A stretch of DNA of 64,000 bases, from assembly GCA_022825195.1 (NCBI GenBank), contig JAJDYL010000101.1, positions 7,740 to 71,739 of the forward strand, read 5' to 3'. Position 1 is the first letter of the stretch, and every line of letters starts with the position of its first letter. The translations under genes and the position numbers were made by a program. Shown here piece after piece: positions 1 through 37,952 of the stretch. Origin of the DNA: Alphaproteobacteria bacterium (GTDB taxonomy: Bacteria > Pseudomonadota > Alphaproteobacteria > Bin95). The notes under the pieces were generated by a model, which saw only the letters and a program-made list of their open reading frames with translations, was not told the DNA's origin and ran no database searches.

Positions 1-1047
1 CTGGAGCTGCTGGACGAGAGCTACGAGTTCCGGCGGTCCACGGATTTCATCAGCAGGAATTTCTCCGGCGTGGAAACCTACGAATACTCGCTCAGCGCCG
101 GGCGGGAAGGCGGCGTCACGGATGTCGACTACCTGAAGCGGGTGGACGCATTTGCGGCCTGGTACCGGACGCAGCCGGAAGTCGCCCACGTCTTCGCGAT
201 CTCCGACATCGTGAAGCGCCTGAACAGGAACCTGCATGGCGACGACCCCGACGAGTACCGCCTGCCGGGGGATTCGGACCTCGCCGCGCAATATCTGCTG
301 CTCTACGAATTCTCGCTGCCGGCCGGGCGCGACCTGAACAATCTGATCGACGTCGACCGGTCTTCCACGCGCATGACCGTCGTGTTGAAGAGCCTTTCCA
401 CCGCCGAGAAGATCGCGCTCGACGACCGTGCGCAGGGCTGGTTGCGGCAGAACGCCCCCGGAATGGAAACCGGCGCCACCGGCGTGGCGCTTGTCGGGGC
501 CCATTCGATCCAGAGGAACATAGAAGGCATGCTGCTCGGCACCGTCATCGCGATGGGCCTCGTCTCGCTGCTCCTGCTTCTCGTCTTCAAGAGCGTGCGC
601 CTCGGCGCGATCAGCCTGATACCCAATTTCGTTCCCGCCGCCATGGCGATGGGCCTGTGGGGCTATGTCGTGGGCGAAGTCGGGGTCGCGGCGTCGGTCG
701 TCACCGCGATCGCCTTCGGCATCATCGTGGACGACACCATCCACTTCATGACCAAATATGTTTCGGCCAGGAAGAGCGGGCTGCTGCCGTCGGAATCGGT
801 CCAGTCCGCCTTCCGCTCCGTCGGCCGGGCGCTGCTGGCGACGACGGTGGTGTTCGGGCTCGGATTCATGGTGTTCGCGGCATCGGGGCTGGTGACCAAC
901 CAGGCGCTCGGCCTGCTCGTGGGAATGACGGTCGTCATCGCGCTTCTGGCCGACTTCCTGTTCCTCCCGCCGCTGCTGATGGCGCTCGACCGCGCCGGGG
1001 AGACGAGCGCGGAGATCAGGGAGCGGCTGCGGCGGGAAGCCGGCTAA
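1..1047 (+). CDS. RND-superfamily (MMPL/HpnN-like, COG1033-type) inner-membrane exporter, C-terminal part; 5' end lies outside the window
   Basis: Frame 1 is open from nt 1. The translation shows multiple TM helices and the conserved RND/MMPL C-terminal transmembrane block (GIIVDDTIHFM..., LLADFLFLPPLLMAL). Paired with the LolA-like gene downstream. Confidence 0.75.
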   Translation: MELLDESYEFRRSTDFISRNFSGVETYEYSLSAGREGGVTDVDYLKRVDAFAAWYRTQPEVAHVFAISDIVKRLNRNLHGDDPDEYRLPGDSDLAAQYLLLYEFSLPAGRDLNNLIDVDRSSTRMTVVLKSLSTAEKIALDDRAQGWLRQNAPGMETGATGVALVGAHSIQRNIEGMLLGTVIAMGLVSLLLLLVFKSVRLGAISLIPNFVPAAMAMGLWGYVVGEVGVAASVVTAIAFGIIVDDTIHFMTKYVSARKSGLLPSESVQSAFRSVGRALLATTVVFGLGFMVFAASGLVTNQALGLLVGMTVVIALLADFLFLPPLLMALDRAGETSAEIRERLRREAG

Positions 1048-1124: not shown

Positions 1125-1934
1125 GTGATACGCGCATTTCTCTCCCGCCCGCTGCCTGCGCTTTTCGGGCTCTTGCTTGCGGTCTTCGCCTGGCCGGCAG
1201 GCCTGGCGGCCGAAAGCGCCGAGGAAGCCGGGCTCAGGATCGCGACGGACGCCCGCGAACGGCAAAAGGGCTTCGGCAATTTCATCGCAGGCATGACCAT
1301 GACGCTCCGCAACAAGCGGGGCCAGGAGAGCCGCCGGGAAGTCCGCCTGAAGGTCATAGAGGTCGAGGCGGACGGCGACCGCACCCTGTTCGTGTTCGAC
1401 CGGCCGCGCGATGTCCGGGGAACGGCGTTTCTCGTCCACGCCCACAAGGAGGAGGCCGACGAGCAGTGGCTCTATCTCCCCGCCCTGAAGCGGGTCAAGC
1501 GCATCAGCTCCTCGAACCAGTCGGGTTCCTTCATGGGCAGTGAGTTCTCATACGAGGATCTGGGCACCCCCGAGGTCGAGAAATTCACCTATCGCCATCT
1601 CCGCGACGAAGCCTGCGGCGAACTCGAGTGCGTGGTTCTGGAGCGCGTGCCGACCGACAAGGATTCCGGATATTCCAGCCAGCTTGTCTGGTTCGACCGG
1701 GAGGAGCTGCGCACCCTGCAGATTCAGTTCTTCGACCGCAGGAAGGCCCATCTCAAGACGATGGTAGTGGAAGGCTACAAGAAATATCTCGGCCGCTTCT
1801 GGCGAAGCAGCAAGATCACGATGACCAACCATCTCACGGGAAAGAGCACCGTGCTGGACTGGTCGGACTACGAGTTCGGCACCGATCTCGACCTCGGCGA
1901 TTTCACACGCACGGCGCTGAAGCGGGCGCGGTAG
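1125..1934 (+). CDS. LolA-like outer membrane lipoprotein-sorting protein family (periplasmic hydrophobic-ligand carrier); GTG start
   Basis: AGGAGGA RBS 7 nt upstream of GTG at 1125. N-terminal signal peptide (LPALFGLLLAVFAWPAGLAAES). Central block EQWLYLPALKRVKRISSSNQSGSFMGSEFSYEDL is characteristic of this family, which commonly sits next to COG1033 RND exporters. Confidence 0.7.
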   Translation: MIRAFLSRPLPALFGLLLAVFAWPAGLAAESAEEAGLRIATDARERQKGFGNFIAGMTMTLRNKRGQESRREVRLKVIEVEADGDRTLFVFDRPRDVRGTAFLVHAHKEEADEQWLYLPALKRVKRISSSNQSGSFMGSEFSYEDLGTPEVEKFTYRHLRDEACGELECVVLERVPTDKDSGYSSQLVWFDREELRTLQIQFFDRRKAHLKTMVVEGYKKYLGRFWRSSKITMTNHLTGKSTVLDWSDYEFGTDLDLGDFTRTALKRAR

Positions 1935-3115: not shown

Positions 3116-5143
3116 TCAGACGGGCAGTGCGCGCCTCTGCTCGGCGACGAGGAATTTCAGCTTCCTGCTCGGCTTCATCGACGGCAGCGGACTGAACCGG
3201 AGCCTGTAATCGGCCGGAGACACTTTGAGCGTGAAATAGTGCGCGACCATCAGCACGTTGACCGCCAGTTGCAGGTCCATCCAGCGGGAGCCGAGGCACC
3301 GGTGCGTGCCCAGTCCGTAAGGTGCGTATCCGGGGCTGCGGTGCTCGTTGCGCGGCGGCTGATGGCGGTCGATATCGAATGAGAACGGATCCGGGAAGGT
3401 CTCTTCCATGTAATGCGGTGCCGTCTGGGCGATATGAAGCCGCGTCCCGACCGGCAATTCGTAGCCCTCGACCACGCAGGAATTCATCACGTTCCTGAGG
3501 GACATCGGAACGATCGGGTACATCCGCAGGCACTCGACAAGAAAACGGTGCGTGACGTCCATCGAGGGCGGACCGAAATCCTCGCCGGCCGGATCGCCGC
3601 CGTCGAACAGGACATCGGCTTCGTTCTGGATTCTCTCGTAAAGCTCGGGCTGCGCCGCCATGGCGTAAACCGCGAAGCTGAACGCATCGCCGAGATACAC
3701 GCTGGCGATAAGTGCTGCCGAAAGGGCGAAGCGCAGATTCGATTCCGGCACCAGTTGCGGATCGCTTGCGTGCAGGCTCAGCAAATCGTCCGCAAGGTCC
3801 CGCGGGCAGCCGGCTCGCTGGGCCGGCGTGTGGACGCTCTGGATCCTCGCCAACAGGGTGTCGATGGCCTTCGCCGTGCGCCTCATTCCCGGCGTGTTCA
3901 GCATGAACCTCGGCAGGGCCCCGATTATGTGCGTGGTGAGCGCCCGCTCCTTGTACGCCATCAGGTTATCGAAGAGGTCCTGGGAATCGACGCTCACCGC
4001 GAGAGAAGAGATTTGCGCATTTATCATTCGCCGGCATGTGCGCGTAGCAGGCAGCGCGTCGCCAACCGTCCAGCTTGCCATGAATTTGCGGCCGTGATGG
4101 TAAATCTGGTCCAACTGGCCCGCCAGCCTCTCCCGCGAATAGGCAGGCGACATGGCCTTGCGGAGCCGGAAATGGTCGGTGCCGTCCAGGGACGGCAATA
4201 CACCGGAGGCGCCGTAGATTTTCTCAAAATCGGCGAAATAGTCCCGGGCCCTCAGATATAACCGCCCGTGCCGGTGCACCCAGCGGTTTATCTCGGAACC
4301 GGCAACGAAAATCATCGGTTCCTTGAACGGAGGACAGATCTGAAAAACCGGGCCGTACCGTTCCGCCAGGTCGGCAAAGAGCGCAGGAATGTTGCCGGTG
4401 CGAATATGCGGACTGAGCAGCAGTCTGCGCAAAGAAACTTTTGGAATTTGTTTGGACAGCGTTGAACGCCGGAGAAGAGGATTGGCTATATTGTGTTTGA
4501 CTGCATCGGCTATGGAACGGCTGATCAAGTCCATCATGCAGATATTTCTGATCCGCTCTTCAGCCTCCTCGTCCAGCTCGAATATGAAACGAAAGACATC
4601 GCATGTATCGACGAGTGAAATAATGATGACATCCCTGGGACCGGGAATCAGATCGGTCAAAATGACCTGGCCGATACGCGCCTTGATAAATTGACCTGCG
4701 GTTCCCTCTCGAGGCCTTCCATCTTGATCGGCAAGAATTTTGTTCGAAGCAAGCGTGTAGAACTCGCCATTATGGCGTTCAAGGATGTTCAGAGCGACCA
4801 AGCGGTCCAGAGTTATCTCGATCACGGATTCGGCATGGAGAACGAGCCGCTCAATCCAGTATTGGGCGTCATGTTGTCCGGGCTCGCAGGCGATCCGGTT
4901 GAGAATGGAATCCAGGGCAGGATCGCCGGTTTCCGTAGCGTCCACCAGGTGCAGCGCCTCCATGTCGGTGTCGAGGCGCGAACGGAGGGAGAGTTCCGCA
5001 AGCACGGCGCCGACAACAGCGCAATTCAGGTCCCAGCCGGGCACCTGGTGAAAGTAGCCGTTCTGCTCGTTGAGGAGCACCAGGATGAGTTCGTCGGGCA
5101 AACTCAGCGCCGGCGTCGTCGAAATCGTCTCGGTACCAGCCAT
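3116..5143 (-). CDS. Two-domain protein: N-terminal GPP34/GOLPH3-like domain (about 225 aa) fused to a C-terminal cytochrome P450
   Basis: Start taken at MAGTETIS (ATG preceded by GAGGAGG); the track ORF extends 43 codons further upstream from a TTG. N-terminal part matches the GPP34 pattern (LSLPDELILVLLNEQNGYF...WDLNCAVVGAVLAELSL...GDPALDSILNRIA...AQYWIERL). C-terminal part has P450 ExxR (ECLRMYP) and the heme-thiolate loop YGLGTHRCLG. No canonical AGxD/ETT I-helix threonine is visible. Confidence 0.8.
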   Translation of the reverse strand: MAGTETISTTPALSLPDELILVLLNEQNGYFHQVPGWDLNCAVVGAVLAELSLRSRLDTDMEALHLVDATETGDPALDSILNRIACEPGQHDAQYWIERLVLHAESVIEITLDRLVALNILERHNGEFYTLASNKILADQDGRPREGTAGQFIKARIGQVILTDLIPGPRDVIIISLVDTCDVFRFIFELDEEAEERIRNICMMDLISRSIADAVKHNIANPLLRRSTLSKQIPKVSLRRLLLSPHIRTGNIPALFADLAERYGPVFQICPPFKEPMIFVAGSEINRWVHRHGRLYLRARDYFADFEKIYGASGVLPSLDGTDHFRLRKAMSPAYSRERLAGQLDQIYHHGRKFMASWTVGDALPATRTCRRMINAQISSLAVSVDSQDLFDNLMAYKERALTTHIIGALPRFMLNTPGMRRTAKAIDTLLARIQSVHTPAQRAGCPRDLADDLLSLHASDPQLVPESNLRFALSAALIASVYLGDAFSFAVYAMAAQPELYERIQNEADVLFDGGDPAGEDFGPPSMDVTHRFLVECLRMYPIVPMSLRNVMNSCVVEGYELPVGTRLHIAQTAPHYMEETFPDPFSFDIDRHQPPRNEHRSPGYAPYGLGTHRCLGSRWMDLQLAVNVLMVAHYFTLKVSPADYRLRFSPLPSMKPSRKLKFLVAEQRRALPV

Positions 5144-5387
5144 CAGCCATGGCCTCCTCGTACCCGAAACCGCCCCGTGCCACCGATACGAGGCTCCGGA
5201 GCGGCGGGCATGAGACCCGTGGACACGGCCAGTGAAATGAACATGTTCGGAACAACCGTAATCCCGCGCCAAGGCGAATCCGGAGACATGAGGAGCCGTC
5301 GTCGTTCACCTTACACTGTGGAATGTCGACCAAAGATGGCCGACAGTCAAGTCTGCGGTGTTCCAGCCGGCCTGGACAGTGTTGATT

Positions 5388-6503
5388 CTATTGCTGAAAT
5401 CTGACGCTGCGCCTGCGCGCCGGACTATCGTCCGATGGTGGCGCAATCCGTTCCAGGGGCGGCCGGTGGAATAGTTGACCGTCCGGGTAGAACTGCTCGC
5501 AGTAGCGCCGGAATTTTCCGATCGGGCCGTCCGAGCGGCAGAGCCCCGGGTGGAGCCGGTATCGTTTCCGGCCCCAGATGACCACGTCCTGCAACACATC
5601 GTGTTTCTGGGCCGTCACGATGATCTTGTTCATGAGCCGGGTGCGCAGCCGAACAGGAAGGAATCGCATTCCGACGATCGGCCGCTTAGGCTTCAGCAGC
5701 CGCCGCACCTGGCTCACCAGTGTCATTTCGACCAGCTCGCCGTCGATGGGCGTTGCGAGCACCCATAATCGGGTGTCCATGCCGATATAATGTTCACGAA
5801 CCTCGACATAGGAATATCCGAGGCCGTGCACATGGGTTACGGCGGAAACATCGTAGGTGAAGCACTTCATTCCCAAGGCGGTCTGGGTTCGCCTGAAGTC
5901 GAAGCAACTCTTGAGCCAGGTTCCTTCTACCGATACCGGGCCGACCGCGTTCACGCTGTCATAGCCGTGCACATAGCGCAGATGCCCGAGATCGACGGAA
6001 TTCTCGGTCGTTTCCTGGGGATGCCCCGCAAATCGGACGCGCCGGACTTCCATCTCGCTCCAGTCGCTGTCGTCGGGCGGGGAAGCGGGCAGATCCCACT
6101 GTGGCGGCCGTCCGCCGCTGCCGCGCCAGGCAAAGACGAGACCCAGAATTTCGCGCGTCTCAAACACTCTCAATCTGGCGGACCGGGGCGGCGGCGCGTA
6201 GGGCGTCGCCACGCACTGACCGGTGACGTCATATTCGAACCCATGAAACGGACAGACGAGGCAACCGTTGCGCACCCGGCCTCCCGCCTCGGGCCCCAGA
6301 TCCGCGCCCAGATGGGGGCAGACCGCTACGGCTACGCAAACATCGCCGTTCCCGTTACACCAGACGACAATCCGTTCGCCAAGCCAGGTCTTTTGCAACA
6401 GCTTTTTGTCTTCTATCGTCTGGCGGCTGGCGACGAAATACCAGCCTTCCGGAAATGGAAAAAGCGAGGGAATACCGTCGGGATCGTTCGAACTGATTTG
6501 CAT
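5388..6503 (-). CDS. Rieske [2Fe-2S] non-heme-iron oxygenase, KshA/Neverland/SdmA-like
   Basis: Rieske motif CPHLGADL...(17 aa)...CPFHGFE and mononuclear iron motif D-x2-H-x4-H (DLGHLRYVHG). GGGAGAG RBS upstream of ATG. Confidence 0.85.
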   Translation of the reverse strand: MQISSNDPDGIPSLFPFPEGWYFVASRQTIEDKKLLQKTWLGERIVVWCNGNGDVCVAVAVCPHLGADLGPEAGGRVRNGCLVCPFHGFEYDVTGQCVATPYAPPPRSARLRVFETREILGLVFAWRGSGGRPPQWDLPASPPDDSDWSEMEVRRVRFAGHPQETTENSVDLGHLRYVHGYDSVNAVGPVSVEGTWLKSCFDFRRTQTALGMKCFTYDVSAVTHVHGLGYSYVEVREHYIGMDTRLWVLATPIDGELVEMTLVSQVRRLLKPKRPIVGMRFLPVRLRTRLMNKIIVTAQKHDVLQDVVIWGRKRYRLHPGLCRSDGPIGKFRRYCEQFYPDGQLFHRPPLERIAPPSDDSPARRRSVRFQQ

Positions 6504-6753: not shown

Positions 6754-8145
6754 ATGGGGGCGATGAATGAAACGGCGCAAGCAGCCTTGCCGAGAAGGAT
6801 TGCCATTATCGGCGCAGGCGTCTCCGGACTGGGGGTAGCCTGGGCGCTGCACCGCCATCCGGACCGGTTCGATTTCCGACTGTTCGAAGCCCAGGCCCAA
6901 ATCGGCGGAAACGCCATTACGGTAGATATGCCGCAGGACGACGGCACGTCGGTTCCTTTCGATATTTCGGTCACTGCCTGCATTCCCTCAGTCTATCACC
7001 ATATTGTCCTGCTCATGCAGCAGCACGGCATAGAACTGGTCGATACCAGATTCAGCTACAGCGTAAAGTACCGAGGCGGTATCTACGCTCACGATTTCGA
7101 CTCCGAAATCAGGAGGCAGCTGCAACCGGAAATCGACAAATTCCAGAGGCTCCTGAGATGTTTGAGGCGAGTGGGCACGCTCAACCGGTCCAGGTCCAGA
7201 CTGCTCAATGCTCTCAACCCGTTGAACTATGTCAGCATGGGCGCACTGCTCAATTTGGGCAGATTCTCCGGAGACTTCAGATACAAGATACTCAAGCCTA
7301 TGTTTGTCAATTTCCTGATGGCGACGAATGTATTCGATATGTCCGCTTCCCTGTTTGCCCGCTATTTGGAATTCTTCGATATTGAAACAGCAACCCCTAT
7401 GCAAACCTGGAAACAGGGAACACGGAGAATCTATGAAGAAATTTCAGCAGGTTTTCGGGAAAAGATTTACCTTAGCCGACCGGTTCATAAAGTATACCGC
7501 CATCGGTCAAAAGTGGTTGTAGAGGATGAGGGTGGGAATATGGAAACATTCGACGATGTCGTTCTTGCGTGCAATGCAAATCAGACATTGATGATTCTCG
7601 ACAAACCGTCTTTTTTGGAAAGCAGCCTTCTGTCTTCGGTCCGATACGAAAGCGAGTTGCATAACCACACCGTCGTGCATTCTGACGCGTCCGTCCTTCC
7701 GGATAACGAGGCCAGGCCCCTCGCCACGCGGAGCAACCATATCGAACAGTACGGCACCAGGCCCGACAATTACGAAATCACCTACATCATGCACAATCAG
7801 CAGCCTTGGGCGAAACGGTCGGACAAGCCCTGCCTCGTCACCTACAATCCGATCAGCCCTATCGACGAGGCTAGGATCGTCAGGAAGTGGTGGTTCCAGC
7901 ACATCGTCCACGATGTCCGCCATGTGACGGTTCTGACGCAGCTGTTTCGCTTCATCCAGGGCAGGAGGCGGACATGGCATTGCGGGGCCCACACGCTGAT
8001 CAACAGCCAGGAGACCTGTTTCGTATCCGGCCTTGTCACCGCGGGGCAGCTGGGCGCGGGCTATCCGTTTCAGGACGCTGAGGCACGGCGCTGGTTCAAC
8101 TTTTACGGGCGCATAATGTTCGGCTGGCGCTTCCGGAAGGCCTGA
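6754..8145 (+). CDS. FAD/NAD(P)-binding amine-oxidase-like oxidoreductase, COG2907 family (the family usually found beside cyclopropane-fatty-acid synthase genes)
   Basis: N-terminal Rossmann fold RIAIIGAGVSGLGVAW...FEAQAQIGGNAITV. Overall layout matches COG2907 members as I recall them (VVLACNANQTLMIL, C-terminal WHCGAH...SGL). Confidence 0.7.
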   Translation: MGAMNETAQAALPRRIAIIGAGVSGLGVAWALHRHPDRFDFRLFEAQAQIGGNAITVDMPQDDGTSVPFDISVTACIPSVYHHIVLLMQQHGIELVDTRFSYSVKYRGGIYAHDFDSEIRRQLQPEIDKFQRLLRCLRRVGTLNRSRSRLLNALNPLNYVSMGALLNLGRFSGDFRYKILKPMFVNFLMATNVFDMSASLFARYLEFFDIETATPMQTWKQGTRRIYEEISAGFREKIYLSRPVHKVYRHRSKVVVEDEGGNMETFDDVVLACNANQTLMILDKPSFLESSLLSSVRYESELHNHTVVHSDASVLPDNEARPLATRSNHIEQYGTRPDNYEITYIMHNQQPWAKRSDKPCLVTYNPISPIDEARIVRKWWFQHIVHDVRHVTVLTQLFRFIQGRRRTWHCGAHTLINSQETCFVSGLVTAGQLGAGYPFQDAEARRWFNFYGRIMFGWRFRKA

Positions 8146-11973: not shown

Positions 11974-12201
11974 ATGAACCTCACGATCTCTATAGACGAC
12001 GACATTCTCGAACACGCCCGGATCAGGGCAATTCGGGAAAAGACGTCCGTCAATGCAGTCGTGCGGGAATATCTGCACGCCTATGCGGGAGTTGACCGTC
12101 AACGCGCCGAAGCCTGCGATTCGCTGTTGGCCTTGTCGCAGGCGAGCGGTTCCCGGCGGGGTGGGGCGGTCTGGACGCGCAGCGAACTCCATGAGCGTTG
12201 A
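11974..12201 (+). CDS. vapB: VapB-type antitoxin (type II TA)
   Basis: 75-aa protein; GGAGG RBS. Overlaps the downstream PIN-domain gene by 11 nt. Confidence 0.65.
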   Translation: MNLTISIDDDILEHARIRAIREKTSVNAVVREYLHAYAGVDRQRAEACDSLLALSQASGSRRGGAVWTRSELHER

Positions 12202-12616
12202 GTGGAAGTTCGTCGACACGAATGTGCTGGTCTATCTGTTCGATGTCGATGCGCCGGACAAACGCGCGCGCGCGCAGGCACTCCTGCGCGAAGAGAAGGA
12301 CTGCATCGTGTTGAGCATACAGGTCCTCGGCGAATTCTATGTGACGGTAACGCGGAAATTCACAGAGTCGTTAAGCCGTGAATCCGCGGCCCGGGCCGTC
12401 GATGCATTCAGCCGGTTTCGCGTCCAGCCGGTTCATCCGGAGACGGTGAACGCCGCCATCCGTCGAAGTCGTTCGACACTGCTGTCCTACTGGGATGCAT
12501 TGATCGTCGAGGCGGCGTTGACCGCCGGAGCGGGCGTGCTCTTTACCGAGGACCTTCAGGACGGCCAGCGGATCGAAGGCTTGCAGATCGTCAATCCGTT
12601 CCGAAGCGGCGGCTGA
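12191..12616 (+). CDS. vapC: VapC PIN-domain toxin
   Basis: FVDTNVLVY...SIQVLGEF...YWDALIV...FTED; PIN acidic residues present. ATG overlaps the stop of the upstream antitoxin. Confidence 0.8.
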   Translation: MSVEWKFVDTNVLVYLFDVDAPDKRARAQALLREEKDCIVLSIQVLGEFYVTVTRKFTESLSRESAARAVDAFSRFRVQPVHPETVNAAIRRSRSTLLSYWDALIVEAALTAGAGVLFTEDLQDGQRIEGLQIVNPFRSGG

Positions 12617-12670
12617 AACAGGGACAGGCGGCACGACGGCTGAGCCCGCTCCTCCGCAAATCGAAGCGAT

Positions 12671-14239
12671 TTGGATGTAAGCATGAGCAAGATCGTCACG
12701 GCTGCGGAGGCGGCGGCGCTGGTGCCTTCCGGCGCGGTTCTGGGCGTGGACGGTTTCGTCGGCTCAGTCTGCCCCGAGGAACTGCTGCTGGCGCTGGAGG
12801 CTCGCTTCCTGGAGACCGGGGAGCCGCACGGGCTGACTGTCATCGCTTCGACCGGCTCTGGCGACACACGCGGGCGCGGCCTCGACCGCCTGCGCCATGA
12901 CGGGATGATCCGCCGGCTCATCACCTCCTATCTCAACCTCAACCGGATGCTGCAGCGCCGGCTGATCGAGAACGAGATCGAGGGCTACCTGCTGCCGCTC
13001 GGCGTCATCGTGCAGCTCTACCGGGAGGTTGCGGCAGGGCGGCCGGGCCTTGTGACCCATGTGGGGCACGGCACTTTCGTCGATCCGGAGCATGGCGGCG
13101 GCAAGGTGAACGCCCGCACGGTCGAGGACTATGTGGAGCGCGTGCGGCTCAGCGGGCGGGACTGGCTGTTCTACCCGTCCGTACGGCTCGATGCCGGATT
13201 GCTCCGGGGCACGACGGCGGACCCGGACGGCAACATCACCATGGAGCGCGAAATCGGTACCTTCCAGGGGCCGAGCTTCGCGCAGGCGGTGCGGAATTCC
13301 GGCGGCACCGTGCTGGCGCAGGTCGAGCGCATTGCGGAGCGCGGCTCGCTCGATCCGAGGAAGGTCGTGATTCCCGGCCATCTCGTGGACCGGGTGGTCG
13401 TGGCGCGGCCCGAAAACCACCCGCAGACCTTTGCCACCGCCTACGATCCGGTCTTCGCGGGCGAGGTCCGGGCGGACCTGAGCGGGCGGCCGCCGCAGCC
13501 GCTATCGGTGAAGAAGGTCATCGGCCGGCGCGCGGCGATGGAGCTCCGCCGGGGCGATGTGGTCAATCTCGGCGTAGGCGCGCCCGAATATGTGGCGACG
13601 GTGGCCGGCGAGGAAGGCTGTGGCGACGCCTTCACGCTGACGGTCGAATCCGGCGCGACGGGCGGTTATCCGGCCTATGGACTGTCCTTCGGCGCCGCGA
13701 TCAATCCAAGCTCGGTCATCGACAACACCTACCAGTTCGACTTCTACGACGGCGGAGGTCTGGACATCACCTTCGTCGGCATGGCGGAGCTGGACGCCGC
13801 CGGCAATGTCAACGTCTCGAAGCTGAAGACGCGCATTCCCGGCATCGGCGGCTTCTTCAACGTGACGCAGGGGGCCAAACGGGTGGTGTTCTGCGGCCAG
13901 TTCTCCGCGGGAGAATCGGATATCCGCGCGGGCGGCGGCCGTCTCGACATCCGGAAGGACGGCGACCCGGTCAAGTTCGTCGAGGCAGTGGAGCAGATCA
14001 GCTTCAACGCCCGCGCCGGCCTGGCGCGCGGGCAGTCGATCATGGCGGTGACGGAGCGCTGCGTCTTCCGCATCGAGGAGGCCGGACCGGTGCTCGTCGA
14101 AATCGCGCCGGGAGTCGAGCTCGAACGCGACGTGCTGGCGCGGATGGCCTTCCGGCCCCGTGTCGCCGGGGAGTTGCAGGAAATGCCGGCTGCGCTCTTC
14201 CGGGACGAGCCGATCGGGCTGGCGGCGCGGCTTTCCTGA
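12671..14239 (+). CDS. Acyl-CoA:carboxylate CoA-transferase (propionate CoA-transferase/COG4670 family)
   Basis: About 520 aa with the family layout (ESGATGG, GIGGFFNVTQGAKRVVF). An alternative start at MSKIV (12683) is possible. Confidence 0.75.
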   Translation: MDVSMSKIVTAAEAAALVPSGAVLGVDGFVGSVCPEELLLALEARFLETGEPHGLTVIASTGSGDTRGRGLDRLRHDGMIRRLITSYLNLNRMLQRRLIENEIEGYLLPLGVIVQLYREVAAGRPGLVTHVGHGTFVDPEHGGGKVNARTVEDYVERVRLSGRDWLFYPSVRLDAGLLRGTTADPDGNITMEREIGTFQGPSFAQAVRNSGGTVLAQVERIAERGSLDPRKVVIPGHLVDRVVVARPENHPQTFATAYDPVFAGEVRADLSGRPPQPLSVKKVIGRRAAMELRRGDVVNLGVGAPEYVATVAGEEGCGDAFTLTVESGATGGYPAYGLSFGAAINPSSVIDNTYQFDFYDGGGLDITFVGMAELDAAGNVNVSKLKTRIPGIGGFFNVTQGAKRVVFCGQFSAGESDIRAGGGRLDIRKDGDPVKFVEAVEQISFNARAGLARGQSIMAVTERCVFRIEEAGPVLVEIAPGVELERDVLARMAFRPRVAGELQEMPAALFRDEPIGLAARLS

Positions 14240-37523: not shown

Positions 37524-37952
37524 CTAATCCAGACGCCGCACCCGCAACCCGTCGAACCGTCCGAAGTCGCGATCGTTCGTCAGGACCTCGTCGATGCCAT
37601 GCTCTCGGCACAGGGCGACGATTTGCGCATCGAACATCAGATTACCGCGCGCATCGGCGTCGCGCGCGGTCGCCAGAAGGCGGTCCAGGAACTCCCCGCC
37701 CGGCCGGACGACCTCGCAGGTCGGGGCGGCAACGACCCCTTCGATGAACGCGGTTGCCTGCGCCATGCTCGATGGAGGACTGAACACGCGCCTGTGCGTC
37801 ACGACGCGAATGAACTCTGCAATGCAGAAGACGGGTAGCACCCATCGTTCCCCGCCGCCGGCGAGGGCAACGAGTTCGGAAACCGCCCTGTCGTGAAACT
37901 CCGTCTCGCCGCGGTGAGCATAAATCAGGATGTTGGTGTCGACGGCGATCAT
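37524..37952 (-). CDS. vapC: VapC PIN-domain toxin
   Basis: IAVDTNILIYA...FDAQIVA...LTNDRDF PIN motifs. 4-nt overlap with the upstream antitoxin. Confidence 0.8.
   Translation of the reverse strand: MIAVDTNILIYAHRGETEFHDRAVSELVALAGGGERWVLPVFCIAEFIRVVTHRRVFSPPSSMAQATAFIEGVVAAPTCEVVRPGGEFLDRLLATARDADARGNLMFDAQIVALCREHGIDEVLTNDRDFGRFDGLRVRRLD

Follow-up and report, generated by a model that had tools for sequence, protein, structure and literature searches.

Bacterial proteins that join a GPP34 domain to a cytochrome P450 have recently been described under the name GPP34_L, as a monophyletic group of 656 proteins reported from sponge symbionts only (Microbiome 2025;13:4, PMC11706023). They are expressed in Aplysina metatranscriptomes and were proposed to be secreted effectors that bind phosphatidylinositol 4-phosphate (PtdIns4P or PI4P) and block phagosome maturation; coral symbionts were mentioned too, for GPP34 in general, and fusions of GPP34 to Rieske proteins and to ABC ATPases were published as well (PMC11706023). 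The text of that study contains neither "sterol" nor "methyltransferase", analyzes gene flanks for the short form only, and leaves the pocket residues and the I-helix undiscussed. A literature search found no other treatment of the GPP34–P450 fusion. Here, we examine such a fusion encoded at positions 3116..5143 (minus strand) of a 64,000-nucleotide stretch of alphaproteobacterial DNA (contig JAJDYL010000101.1, positions 7,740 to 71,739; hereafter the window) and compare it with its relatives. An original prediction, made from the letters of the window, knew of no described GPP34–P450 architecture; the architecture is already known and is not a discovery. What is new relative to the published text is the loss of the phosphoinositide pocket, a derived Tyr-Leu I-helix, and linkage to steroid-type genes across phyla. 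With a probability of about 0.5, we read the locus as a mobile sterol- or triterpenoid-tailoring cassette in which GPP34 would serve as a lipid- or membrane-docking module.

Two further systems frame the comparison. The PtdIns4P pocket of GOLPH3 consists of W81, R90, R171, and R174, and binding was tested with the double mutants W81A/R90A and R171A/R174A (PMC2806290). Sponge symbionts carry functional sterol methyltransferases (SMTs) and sterol biosynthesis clusters (PMC9531527, PMC10070321), and transferable sterol clusters have been reported in many of the lineages that also harbor the fusion (PMC9531527).

The fusion gene and its family

The gene and its landmarks, all on the minus strand, are as follows.

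3116..5143, minus: coding sequence of the GPP34–P450 fusion, 675 amino acids, very likely a GPP34_L member (Pfam, homologue length, source-contig gene)
5153..5159, minus: Shine-Dalgarno-like GAGGAGG (read from the sequence)
4496..5101, minus: GPP34/GOLPH3-fold domain, residues 15-216 (Pfam, profile search, AlphaFold2 and Foldseek)
4820..5041, minus: codons aligned with the PI4P-pocket residues of GOLPH3, namely P35 (5039-5041), V44 (5012-5014), E105 (4829-4831), and I108 (4820-4822) (hmmalign)
4412..4495, minus: conserved inter-domain linker, residues 217-244 (88-sequence alignment)
3188..4411, minus: cytochrome P450 domain, residues 245-652 (Pfam, Foldseek)
3686..3706, minus: I-helix A480-S-V-Y-L-G-D486 (alignment; register from divergent clades)
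3524..3535, minus: K-helix ExxR, E537-C-L-R540 (alignment)
3290..3322, minus: heme-binding loop P608-Y-G-L-G-T-H-R-C616-L-G618 (alignment)
4394..4846, minus: low-GC3 tract (GC3, the GC fraction at third codon positions), codons ~100-250 (codon-composition profile)

Both Pfam families score above their cutoffs, with GPP34 (PF05719) covering residues 15-216 (E 2e-26, 93.7 bits against a cutoff of 29.1, profile positions 1-199 of 201) and p450 (PF00067) covering residues 245-652 (E 1.5e-32, 113.4 bits against 22.8). No stop codon or frameshift lies between the two halves. The original prediction of an in-frame fusion, with GPP34 in the first ~225 residues followed by a complete P450, is thus borne out by the profile search, and neither of the two refuting outcomes that it had named, a missing GPP34 domain or an interrupted reading frame, was found. 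Pfam reports no further family on the protein, and the N-terminal partner matches no cofactor-binding family. The linker is itself conserved: in the alignment of 88 homologues in which residue conservation was scored, residues 217-244 have a mean top-residue frequency of 0.72, and P222, L229, and P234 are invariant.

In the open reading frame (ORF) list of the window, the gene is open over 3116..5272 (minus), 718 codons from a TTG. An in-frame ATG at 5143 yields 675 amino acids, which is the length of nearly all homologues and of the gene call on the source contig, and GAGGAGG sits 9 nt upstream of it. Because of this spacing and the homologue length, the ATG at 5143 is the likely start, in preference to the TTG at 5272. 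Upstream of the ATG the frame stays open for 43 codons (5144-5272), up to the TTG. Annotations of 690-717 amino acids exist for a few homologues in the database, probably from comparable upstream starts.

Other proteins with the fusion, for which the original prediction had suggested a search, are numerous. The protein database holds more than 120 clusters (at 90% identity) of ~675 amino acids with both GPP34 and p450, at 73-99% identity to the window protein, and the domain pair is precomputed in all of the 120 best homologues. Hundreds of ~675-residue homologues at 64-99% identity occur in sponge-associated metagenome-assembled genomes (MAGs) of ten or more phyla, including many closed long-read chromosomes. 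When each GTDB species was represented by a single genome, 148 relatives were retrieved. Eighty of these 148, at 64-86% identity, were used for the locus comparisons below; they belong to Alphaproteobacteria, Gammaproteobacteria, Latescibacterota, Binatia, Longimicrobiales/Gemmatimonadota, Nitrospirales, Dehalococcoidia/Chloroflexota, Thermodesulfobacteriota, Rhodothermales, and Bacteriovoracales, and the loci closest to the window come from sponge MAGs. A protein identical to that of the window is encoded on ENA scaffold KELL22-1_SAMN22237329_METAG-scaffold_563, a label that we take to refer to the work of Kelly et al. (2022) on Ircinia sponge metagenomes. One locus (L022, JAAXIB010000027.1, Nitrospirales bacterium isolate Plut_88904) bears a label that looks like that of a MAG from the coral Porites lutea; on this label, the fusion may not be strictly confined to sponges.

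The window protein matches GPP34_L in architecture, length class, sponge source, and spread over many phyla, and no structural difference separates them. Since it shares 64-99% identity with at least 148 fusion proteins, its membership in the monophyletic clade is very likely. The clade is itself part of a wider group. A HMMER search of 50%-identity representatives retrieved 367 proteins at E <= 1e-30, among them dozens of full-length fusions (~655-690 amino acids) at 27-41% identity, as well as stand-alone P450 relatives of ~440-460 amino acids at 29-34% identity. The many clades at 27-41% identity indicate that the fusion is old and diversified. Among these relatives there are also a GPP34-GPP34-P450 protein of 872 amino acids (P0140), a tandem GPP34 protein lacking the P450 (P0215, 444 amino acids), and a P450 with two C-terminal cyclic nucleotide monophosphate-binding domains (P0267, 711 amino acids).

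The GPP34 domain and its former phosphoinositide pocket

Searched alone against the PDB with phmmer, the N-domain gives a marginal match to Vps74 (E 0.015). A profile built from 22 diverse fusion N-domains matches GOLPH3 (3kn1) at E 4.7e-12 and Vps74 at E 2e-11. The AlphaFold2 model of residues 1-232 has a mean predicted local distance difference test (pLDDT) score of 79.5 and a predicted template modeling (pTM) score of 0.82. When this model was compared with the whole PDB by Foldseek, only GOLPH3 (9qpq_B, 3kn1) and Vps74 were recovered, at E 1.9e-9 to 1.6e-5; the match to 9qpq_B (E 1.9e-9) has template modeling (TM) scores of 0.68/0.65, and the next match outside the family lies at E 0.22. 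At the level of the predicted structure, membership of the N-domain in the GOLPH3 fold is secure.

The similarity does not extend to the lipid-binding site. Alignment with hmmalign places P35, V44, E105, and I108 at the positions of GOLPH3 W81, R90, R171, and R174, with a conserved Trp two residues past P35. In 78 clade members, the position of R90 holds V, I, A, or T and never a basic residue, R171 is replaced by E or D in 77, and R174 by I, V, or T. The 36 divergent fusions have Ala at R90 in 29 cases and Asp at R171 in 21, and 19 of them keep Arg at R174; a basic residue is not among their common residues at R90. The original prediction had implied phosphoinositide-type lipid binding, which sits poorly with Val, Glu, and Ile at three of the four GOLPH3 pocket positions. 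The loop at the former pocket (N25, G29, F31, V34, G36, W37, C41, and G45) is nonetheless among the most conserved stretches of the domain. The site seems to persist in a non-basic form with another chemistry, and the lack of conservation at the pocket residues argues that the fusion is not of the functional PI4P-binding GOLPH3 type.

Compared with GOLPH3 and Vps74 (3kn1, 9qpq, 2zih), the N-domain has the fold in common, together with profile homology at E 5e-12, whereas identity is ~21%, pocket and hairpin are not conserved, and the domain is fused to an enzyme outside any Golgi context. The fusion protein has neither a signal peptide nor a transmembrane segment; its maximum 19-residue hydropathy is 1.72 and falls in buried helices.

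The P450 domain

The heme loop FxxGxxxCxG and the K-helix ExxR are listed as P450 motifs (PMC11586672). Both were read in the window protein by the original prediction, and both hold up: E537-C-L-R540 and YGLGTHRC616LG are present, and E537, R540, G610, L611, G612, H614, C616, L617, and G618 are invariant in the 88-homologue alignment. The heme loop carries Tyr at the position of the Phe in the consensus.

The distal site is different. Where the I-helix motif (A/G)Gx(D/E)T(T/S) is expected, the protein has A480-S-V-Y-L-G-D486, within a long helix (467-497) of the full-length AlphaFold2 model. Among the 88 homologues, A480, S481, Y483, G485, and D486 are invariant, and V482 and L484 are conserved in at least 90%. 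Divergent fusions supply the register. At the same place they have AGHYT (P0128), AGLHT (P0137), and VGLDT, VGIDT, AGLDT, or AGIET (P0138, P0140, P0141, and P0143), and these motifs assign the acid position to Y483 and the Thr position to L484. The acid–alcohol pair, which the original prediction could not make out, is thus indeed missing, its two positions being occupied by Y483 and L484 across the clade. Relatives at 41% identity share a non-canonical I-helix (ASIYIG, AAIYLG), and fusion clades at 31-36% identity have a canonical or near-canonical pair (xGxD/ET; AGLHT in P0137). Because the deeper fusion clades keep the acid–alcohol pair, the alignments indicate that Tyr-Leu at the distal site is derived and conserved in the clade, and not a product of decay.

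The closest P450s of solved structure are distant in sequence, namely CYP184A1 (7wzl, E 1.6e-17), followed by the cytochrome P450DA heme-domain entries 7f3w and 7f3h (E ~1e-16) and by CYP51s (~1e-15, mostly over the C-terminal third). All NCBIfam equivalog models score far below cutoff, the top ones being terpene oxidases. Searched with the full-length AlphaFold2 model, Foldseek returned more than 1,600 P450 chains at E <= 0.001, and its best matches are CYP51s, CYP184A1, CYP204A3, CYP97C1, and BM3, with target TM scores of 0.65-0.73 at 13-22% identity.

Identity as a CYP51 was considered and rejected: PDB matches reach only ~1e-15, and structural alignment gives 16-19% identity. CYP51s (e.g., 4lxj, 6mcw) are best structural matches, show C-terminal similarity at E ~1e-15, and, like the fusion, occur in sponge symbionts. 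True symbiont CYP51s, in contrast, are ~30% identical to yeast ERG11 (E 1e-62 to 1e-77), and the fusion P450 is far more distant. The I-helix of CYP51 is of the AGQHTS type, whereas that of the fusion reads ASVYLG, and the fusion gene is not adjacent to genes for an oxidosqualene cyclase (OSC) or ERG24. P450 BM3 and the CYP51–ferredoxin of M. capsulatus likewise combine a P450 with an accessory domain in one chain, but the partner here is N-terminal and non-redox; Pfam detects no flavodoxin, reductase, or ferredoxin domain in the fusion protein. Judged by its sequence, then, the fusion protein is not a P450 with a canonical monooxygenase I-helix, not a CYP51, and not a redox-fused P450.

Conserved neighbors across phyla

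The fusion gene is surrounded in the window by the following genes.

1..1047, plus: MMPL/RND (HAE3, HpnN-like) transporter, C-terminal part (Pfam MMPL; 778 amino acids on the source contig)
1125..1934, plus: LolA-like/TP_0789-like lipoprotein carrier, 269 amino acids (Pfam LolA_like E 7e-60; source-contig gene)
1944..2969, minus: SMT homologue, 341 amino acids (Sterol_MT_C E 6e-23), downstream of the fusion and on the same strand
5388..6503, minus: KshA-like Rieske oxygenase, 371 amino acids (Rieske and KshA_C), upstream of the fusion and on the same strand
6754..8145, plus: amine-oxidase-family flavoprotein, 463 amino acids (Pfam Amino_oxidase), divergent from the Rieske gene

The MMPL and LolA-like genes on the plus strand converge with the SMT, GPP34–P450, and Rieske genes on the minus strand. 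Functional SMTs are marked by Region I GWGxxFHF, Region II DxGxGxxGP, a Glu in Region III, and G..F.P in Sterol_MT_C (bioRxiv 10.64898/2025.12.19.695621). The window homologue has GWGQSFHF, DLGCGVGGP, YSIEATCCAP (IEAT), and GIFTPM, and so keeps every conserved SMT motif checked, a subset of 25 conserved residues. The SMT homologues also match the CMAS family of cyclopropane and methyl-lipid synthases, and the CFA and UfaM-type NCBIfam models give them ~30 bits against cutoffs of 400-650. The Rieske neighbor combines PF00355 (E 2e-17) with PF19298 (KshA_C, E 1.7e-24), a domain pair that points to the KshA type, and its best PDB match is KshA (4qdf, E 3e-25). SdmA was considered for this protein and rejected (26.2 bits against an NCBIfam cutoff of 600). 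The flavoprotein is matched best, over its full length, by LkcE (6f7l, E 2e-26).

The linkage of these genes was assessed within ±10 kb of the fusion gene in the 80 loci, where support-ranked, non-overlapping ORFs were also clustered. A Rieske/KshA_C gene is present in 63 of the 80 loci (55-80% identity), an SMT-like gene in 50, lying less than 500 bp from the fusion gene in 35 of these, and an LkcE-like flavoprotein gene in 43 (68-83% identity). At least one of the three accompanies the fusion in 73 loci, and all three in 32. Gene order and orientation differ between phyla, with the linkage kept. MMPL genes were found in 27 loci by tblastn with the window MMPL as query; in the ORF clustering, an 844-amino-acid MMPL type appeared in 33 loci and the window type in 8.

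The SMT-like partners fall into two classes, the window type with GWG(Q/R)SFHF (~11) and a commoner class B with GWGESLHF (~31), and some loci hold both. Class B genes usually lie at ~12050-13200 (minus) of the locus, directly after the P450 gene (L003, L008, L016, L022, L026, L036, L044, L078, etc.). A search of the window found no second GPP34 or P450 copy and no class B SMT, the canonical class being the only one there. The published GPP34-Rieske fusions were sought with the Rieske protein and were not found among its best 120 matches.

The transporter genes vary as well. The window MMPL scores below the cutoffs of NCBIfam HAE3, HpnN, and BstA alike. The window pair resembles the HpnN and BstA RND transporters and the mycobacterial MmpL-LprG/LppX systems in setting an MMPL/RND protein and a lipid-carrier lipoprotein beside lipid enzymes; it differs from HpnN and BstA in scoring far under their equivalog cutoffs. 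The 844-amino-acid MMPL type and, in 9 loci, an LppX_LprAFG-like lipoprotein cluster (e.g., L071:18465-19322, minus) take the place of the LolA-like pair of Proteobacteria. The representative MMPL of Dehalococcoidia (L038:13126-15654, minus) has Pfam matches to the sterol-sensing/Patched domain (SSD) at E 3e-13.

Signs of horizontal transfer are seen in composition and in cross-phylum identity. GC3 is 0.68-0.73 in the three central cassette genes, 0.83 in the adjacent SMT gene, and mostly 0.85-0.93 in the other genes of the window. The fusion proteins are ~70% identical between phyla, and the Rieske partner follows the same pattern, with 120 best homologues at 66-99% identity. The cassette has lineages, horizontal transfer, and SMT motifs in common with the sterol genes of symbionts (SMTs, SdmA/SdmB, and the ERG24-CYP51-OSC "CSG" clusters; PMC10070321, PMC9531527). 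In contrast to these sterol genes, it has a KshA-like protein and not SdmA, a GPP34–P450 and not CYP51, an LkcE-like flavoprotein in addition, and no nearby cyclase.

Elsewhere in the window, the genes are those of ordinary metabolism. Between 8492 and 64000 there are genes for an AMP-dependent ligase, two family III CoA-transferases, an enoyl-CoA hydratase, a 3-hydroxyacyl-CoA dehydrogenase, electron transfer flavoprotein (ETF) alpha and beta subunits, a MaoC-like dehydratase, four luciferase-like monooxygenases, a TauD-family dioxygenase, a sulfatase, a molybdopterin oxidoreductase, a TRAP transporter, a class II ribonucleotide reductase, and glutamate synthase. These metabolic genes are not conserved beside the cassette in other loci. 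Two PIN-domain ORFs, at 12053-12616 (plus) and 37524-37952 (minus), are likely toxins of toxin-antitoxin pairs.

Base composition of the fusion gene

The original prediction described the GPP34 half of the gene as markedly AT-richer than the P450 half and took this as a hint of a domain-fusion or recombination origin. The contrast is there in part. The GPP34 domain has 55% GC against 62% in the P450 domain, and a trough of about 48% exists; it is limited, however, to codons ~100-250 (window ~4394-4846), where GC falls to a minimum of ~48-52% and GC3 to 0.52-0.58. This tract takes in the linker and the C-terminal half of the GPP34 domain, whereas codons 1-100 (62% GC, GC3 0.77) resemble the P450 part. 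In alignment register, the sister loci L001, L003, and L008 show only a weak trough, and family-wide there is none (mean deviation about -0.02). L001, the closest locus, is ~0.90 identical to the window gene at the nucleotide level, a value that falls to 0.70-0.77 within the tract. At most, the tract looks like a mosaic tract specific to this alphaproteobacterial lineage. The idea of a fusion scar was rejected, as the dip lies off the domain boundary, is absent from the family, and is lineage-specific, and the fusion itself is old. A second local trough, with GC of 0.44-0.45, occurs at 7200-7650 inside the amine-oxidase flavoprotein gene and may be another mosaic tract.

Proposed function and alternatives

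As a sterol- or triterpenoid-tailoring cassette, the locus would work as follows. The fusion would be one enzyme of a mobile lipid-tailoring set, acting with the Rieske oxygenase, one or two SMT homologues, the flavin oxidoreductase, and an MMPL/RND transporter with its lipoprotein carrier. The substrates would most likely be sterols or related polycyclic triterpenoids, either made by the symbiont or derived from the sponge. The GPP34 domain, having lost the basic PI4P pocket and kept a conserved hydrophobic and aromatic version of it, would dock the soluble P450 at the membrane or deliver a hydrophobic substrate to it. Such a role may be likened to that of the N-terminal membrane anchor of eukaryotic sterol P450s; the tomato sterol C22-desaturase, for example, requires its membrane anchor for activity (PMC7972189). 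The P450 would bind heme through C616, and with Tyr483-Leu484 in place of the proton-relay pair, its chemistry is probably not ordinary hydroxylation. Candidate reactions are desaturation, peroxide-driven or substrate-assisted oxidation, and rearrangement of an oxygenated sterol. The products would be exported by the MMPL system. Consistent with this scheme are the Sterol_MT_C domain and SMT motifs, the KshA_C domain and KshA kinship of the Rieske protein, a predicted P450 fold closest to CYP51, and SSD-type MMPL proteins with LppX_LprAFG- or LolA-like carriers. The published fusions of GPP34 to Rieske proteins and ABC ATPases (PMC11706023) also agree with GPP34 as an accessory module that serves oxygenases and transport.

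A broader version of the scheme can be formulated, although we regard it as unlikely at present. In it, the cassette would make or remodel the unconventional sterols of demosponges (for example side-chain-alkylated, extra-desaturated, or ring-oxygenated), starting from sterols of the host or the symbiont, and export them. The GOLPH3 fold would have changed its task from reading phosphoinositides to binding sterols and handing them to oxygenases, and the Tyr-Leu P450 would perform non-monooxygenase chemistry, such as desaturation or rearrangement of oxygenated sterols.

Several observations weigh against a sterol-tailoring cassette with a membrane-docking GPP34 domain. The region that corresponds to the GOLPH3 beta-hairpin (~133-150) is variable and polar, which makes membrane insertion in the manner of GOLPH3 doubtful. 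The full-length AlphaFold2 model is of moderate quality (pLDDT 69, pTM 0.61, Cys loop below 50), and the structural likeness to CYP51 is generic (~18% identity). Within ±10 kb of the 80 loci and in the 64-kb window, there is no gene for an OSC, CYP51, or ERG24, nor is a ferredoxin or reductase conserved nearby. Because no cyclase, CYP51, or ERG24 lies close, the sterol link is drawn from the family assignments of the neighbors, and the biochemical function of every family member is a prediction. In addition, class B SMT-like proteins have Leu at a position of Region I where every functional SMT has Phe; because this departs from a fully conserved residue, the class B partner may use another substrate.

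This last deviation also speaks for non-sterol lipid tailoring, which we consider unlikely, although it merits attention. Here, the substrate would be, for example, a methyl-branched or furan-type fatty acyl chain, a hopanoid, or another terpenoid such as a carotenoid-like one. The "SMT" would add its methyl group at a different isolated double bond, next to which the flavoprotein would act as a desaturase; the methylase UfaM and the NAD/FAD desaturase UfaD provide a precedent (PMC7380195). The additional matches of the SMT homologues to CMAS, the terpene-oxidase models that come nearest to the P450 (far below cutoff), and a neighborhood devoid of sterol core genes are in keeping with it. On the other side, Sterol_MT_C scores above its Pfam cutoff in both SMT classes, the window SMT keeps all of the conserved motifs checked, KshA_C is a steroid-associated domain, and the CFA/UfaM-type models fall short of their cutoffs by hundreds of bits.

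It is rather improbable that the genes serve catabolism, with host sterols as a carbon source, a CYP125-like action of the P450 on the side chain, and a KshA-like Rieske protein in ring opening. Among solved structures, KshA is indeed nearest to the Rieske partner, and the window flank contains an AMP-dependent ligase, CoA-transferases, enoyl-CoA hydratase, 3-hydroxyacyl-CoA dehydrogenase, ETF, and luciferase-like monooxygenases. Steroid-degrading bacteria have also been reported from around the globe, host environments among them (PMC5790920). Yet the tightest partner of the fusion (<500 bp in 35 of 50 loci) is an SMT-family S-adenosylmethionine-dependent C-methyltransferase, which is biosynthetic, and the beta-oxidation-type genes are not conserved, with an AMP-ligase in 1 of 80 loci and luciferase-like proteins in 3. 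KstD, KshB, HsaA-D, and Mce-type genes are absent among the conserved neighbors in the 80 loci. Moreover, RND/MMPL systems export and do not import.

The published proposal, in which GPP34 binds PI4P on the host phagosome and blocks its maturation so that the symbiont evades digestion, with the P450 as an auxiliary, appears decidedly improbable for this clade. It can draw on the homology and fold identity with GOLPH3 and Vps74, on a cross-phylum spread typical of symbiosis factors, and on the restriction to sponge (and coral) symbionts, the absence from free-living relatives, and the expression in sponge metatranscriptomes (PMC11706023). The residues W81/R90 and R171/R174, which mutagenesis showed GOLPH3 to need for PtdIns4P binding (PMC2806290), are, however, P, V, E, and I in the clade, and the protein has no signal peptide. 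For delivery into the host cytosol, a heme P450 dependent on redox partners from bacteria would be an odd choice of cargo, and the gene sits among conserved genes for cytoplasmic lipid enzymes and an RND exporter. The pocket residues and the GPP34_L flanks were not examined in the study that put the proposal forward (PMC11706023).

Finally, an assembly or annotation artefact, with GPP34_S and P450 genes joined by a sequencing error, could invoke the stand-alone GPP34 genes that lie beside P450 genes in Actinobacteriota symbionts (PMC11706023), but it is refuted by the homologue clusters and GTDB-species loci, by hundreds of independent assemblies, closed long-read MAG chromosomes included, that encode the ~675-residue fusion with its conserved linker, and by the identical protein on the source contig.

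Implications

For the GPP34_L family, the proposal of a PI4P-binding effector is an ill fit, given the loss of the pocket and the position of the gene within a conserved, horizontally transferred set of steroid-type and lipid-exporter genes. This suggests remodeling of sterol-like lipids rather than manipulation of the host cell. If the cassette acts on sterols, it would supply candidate genes for the question of which unusual "sponge" sterols are made or modified by bacteria. This would in turn bear on the sterane biomarkers that are used to date early animals (the sponge debate, PMC10070321). If true, the fusion would also add to the P450s a new kind of accessory domain, one that is not a redox domain, and a new distal-site variant, Tyr-Leu.

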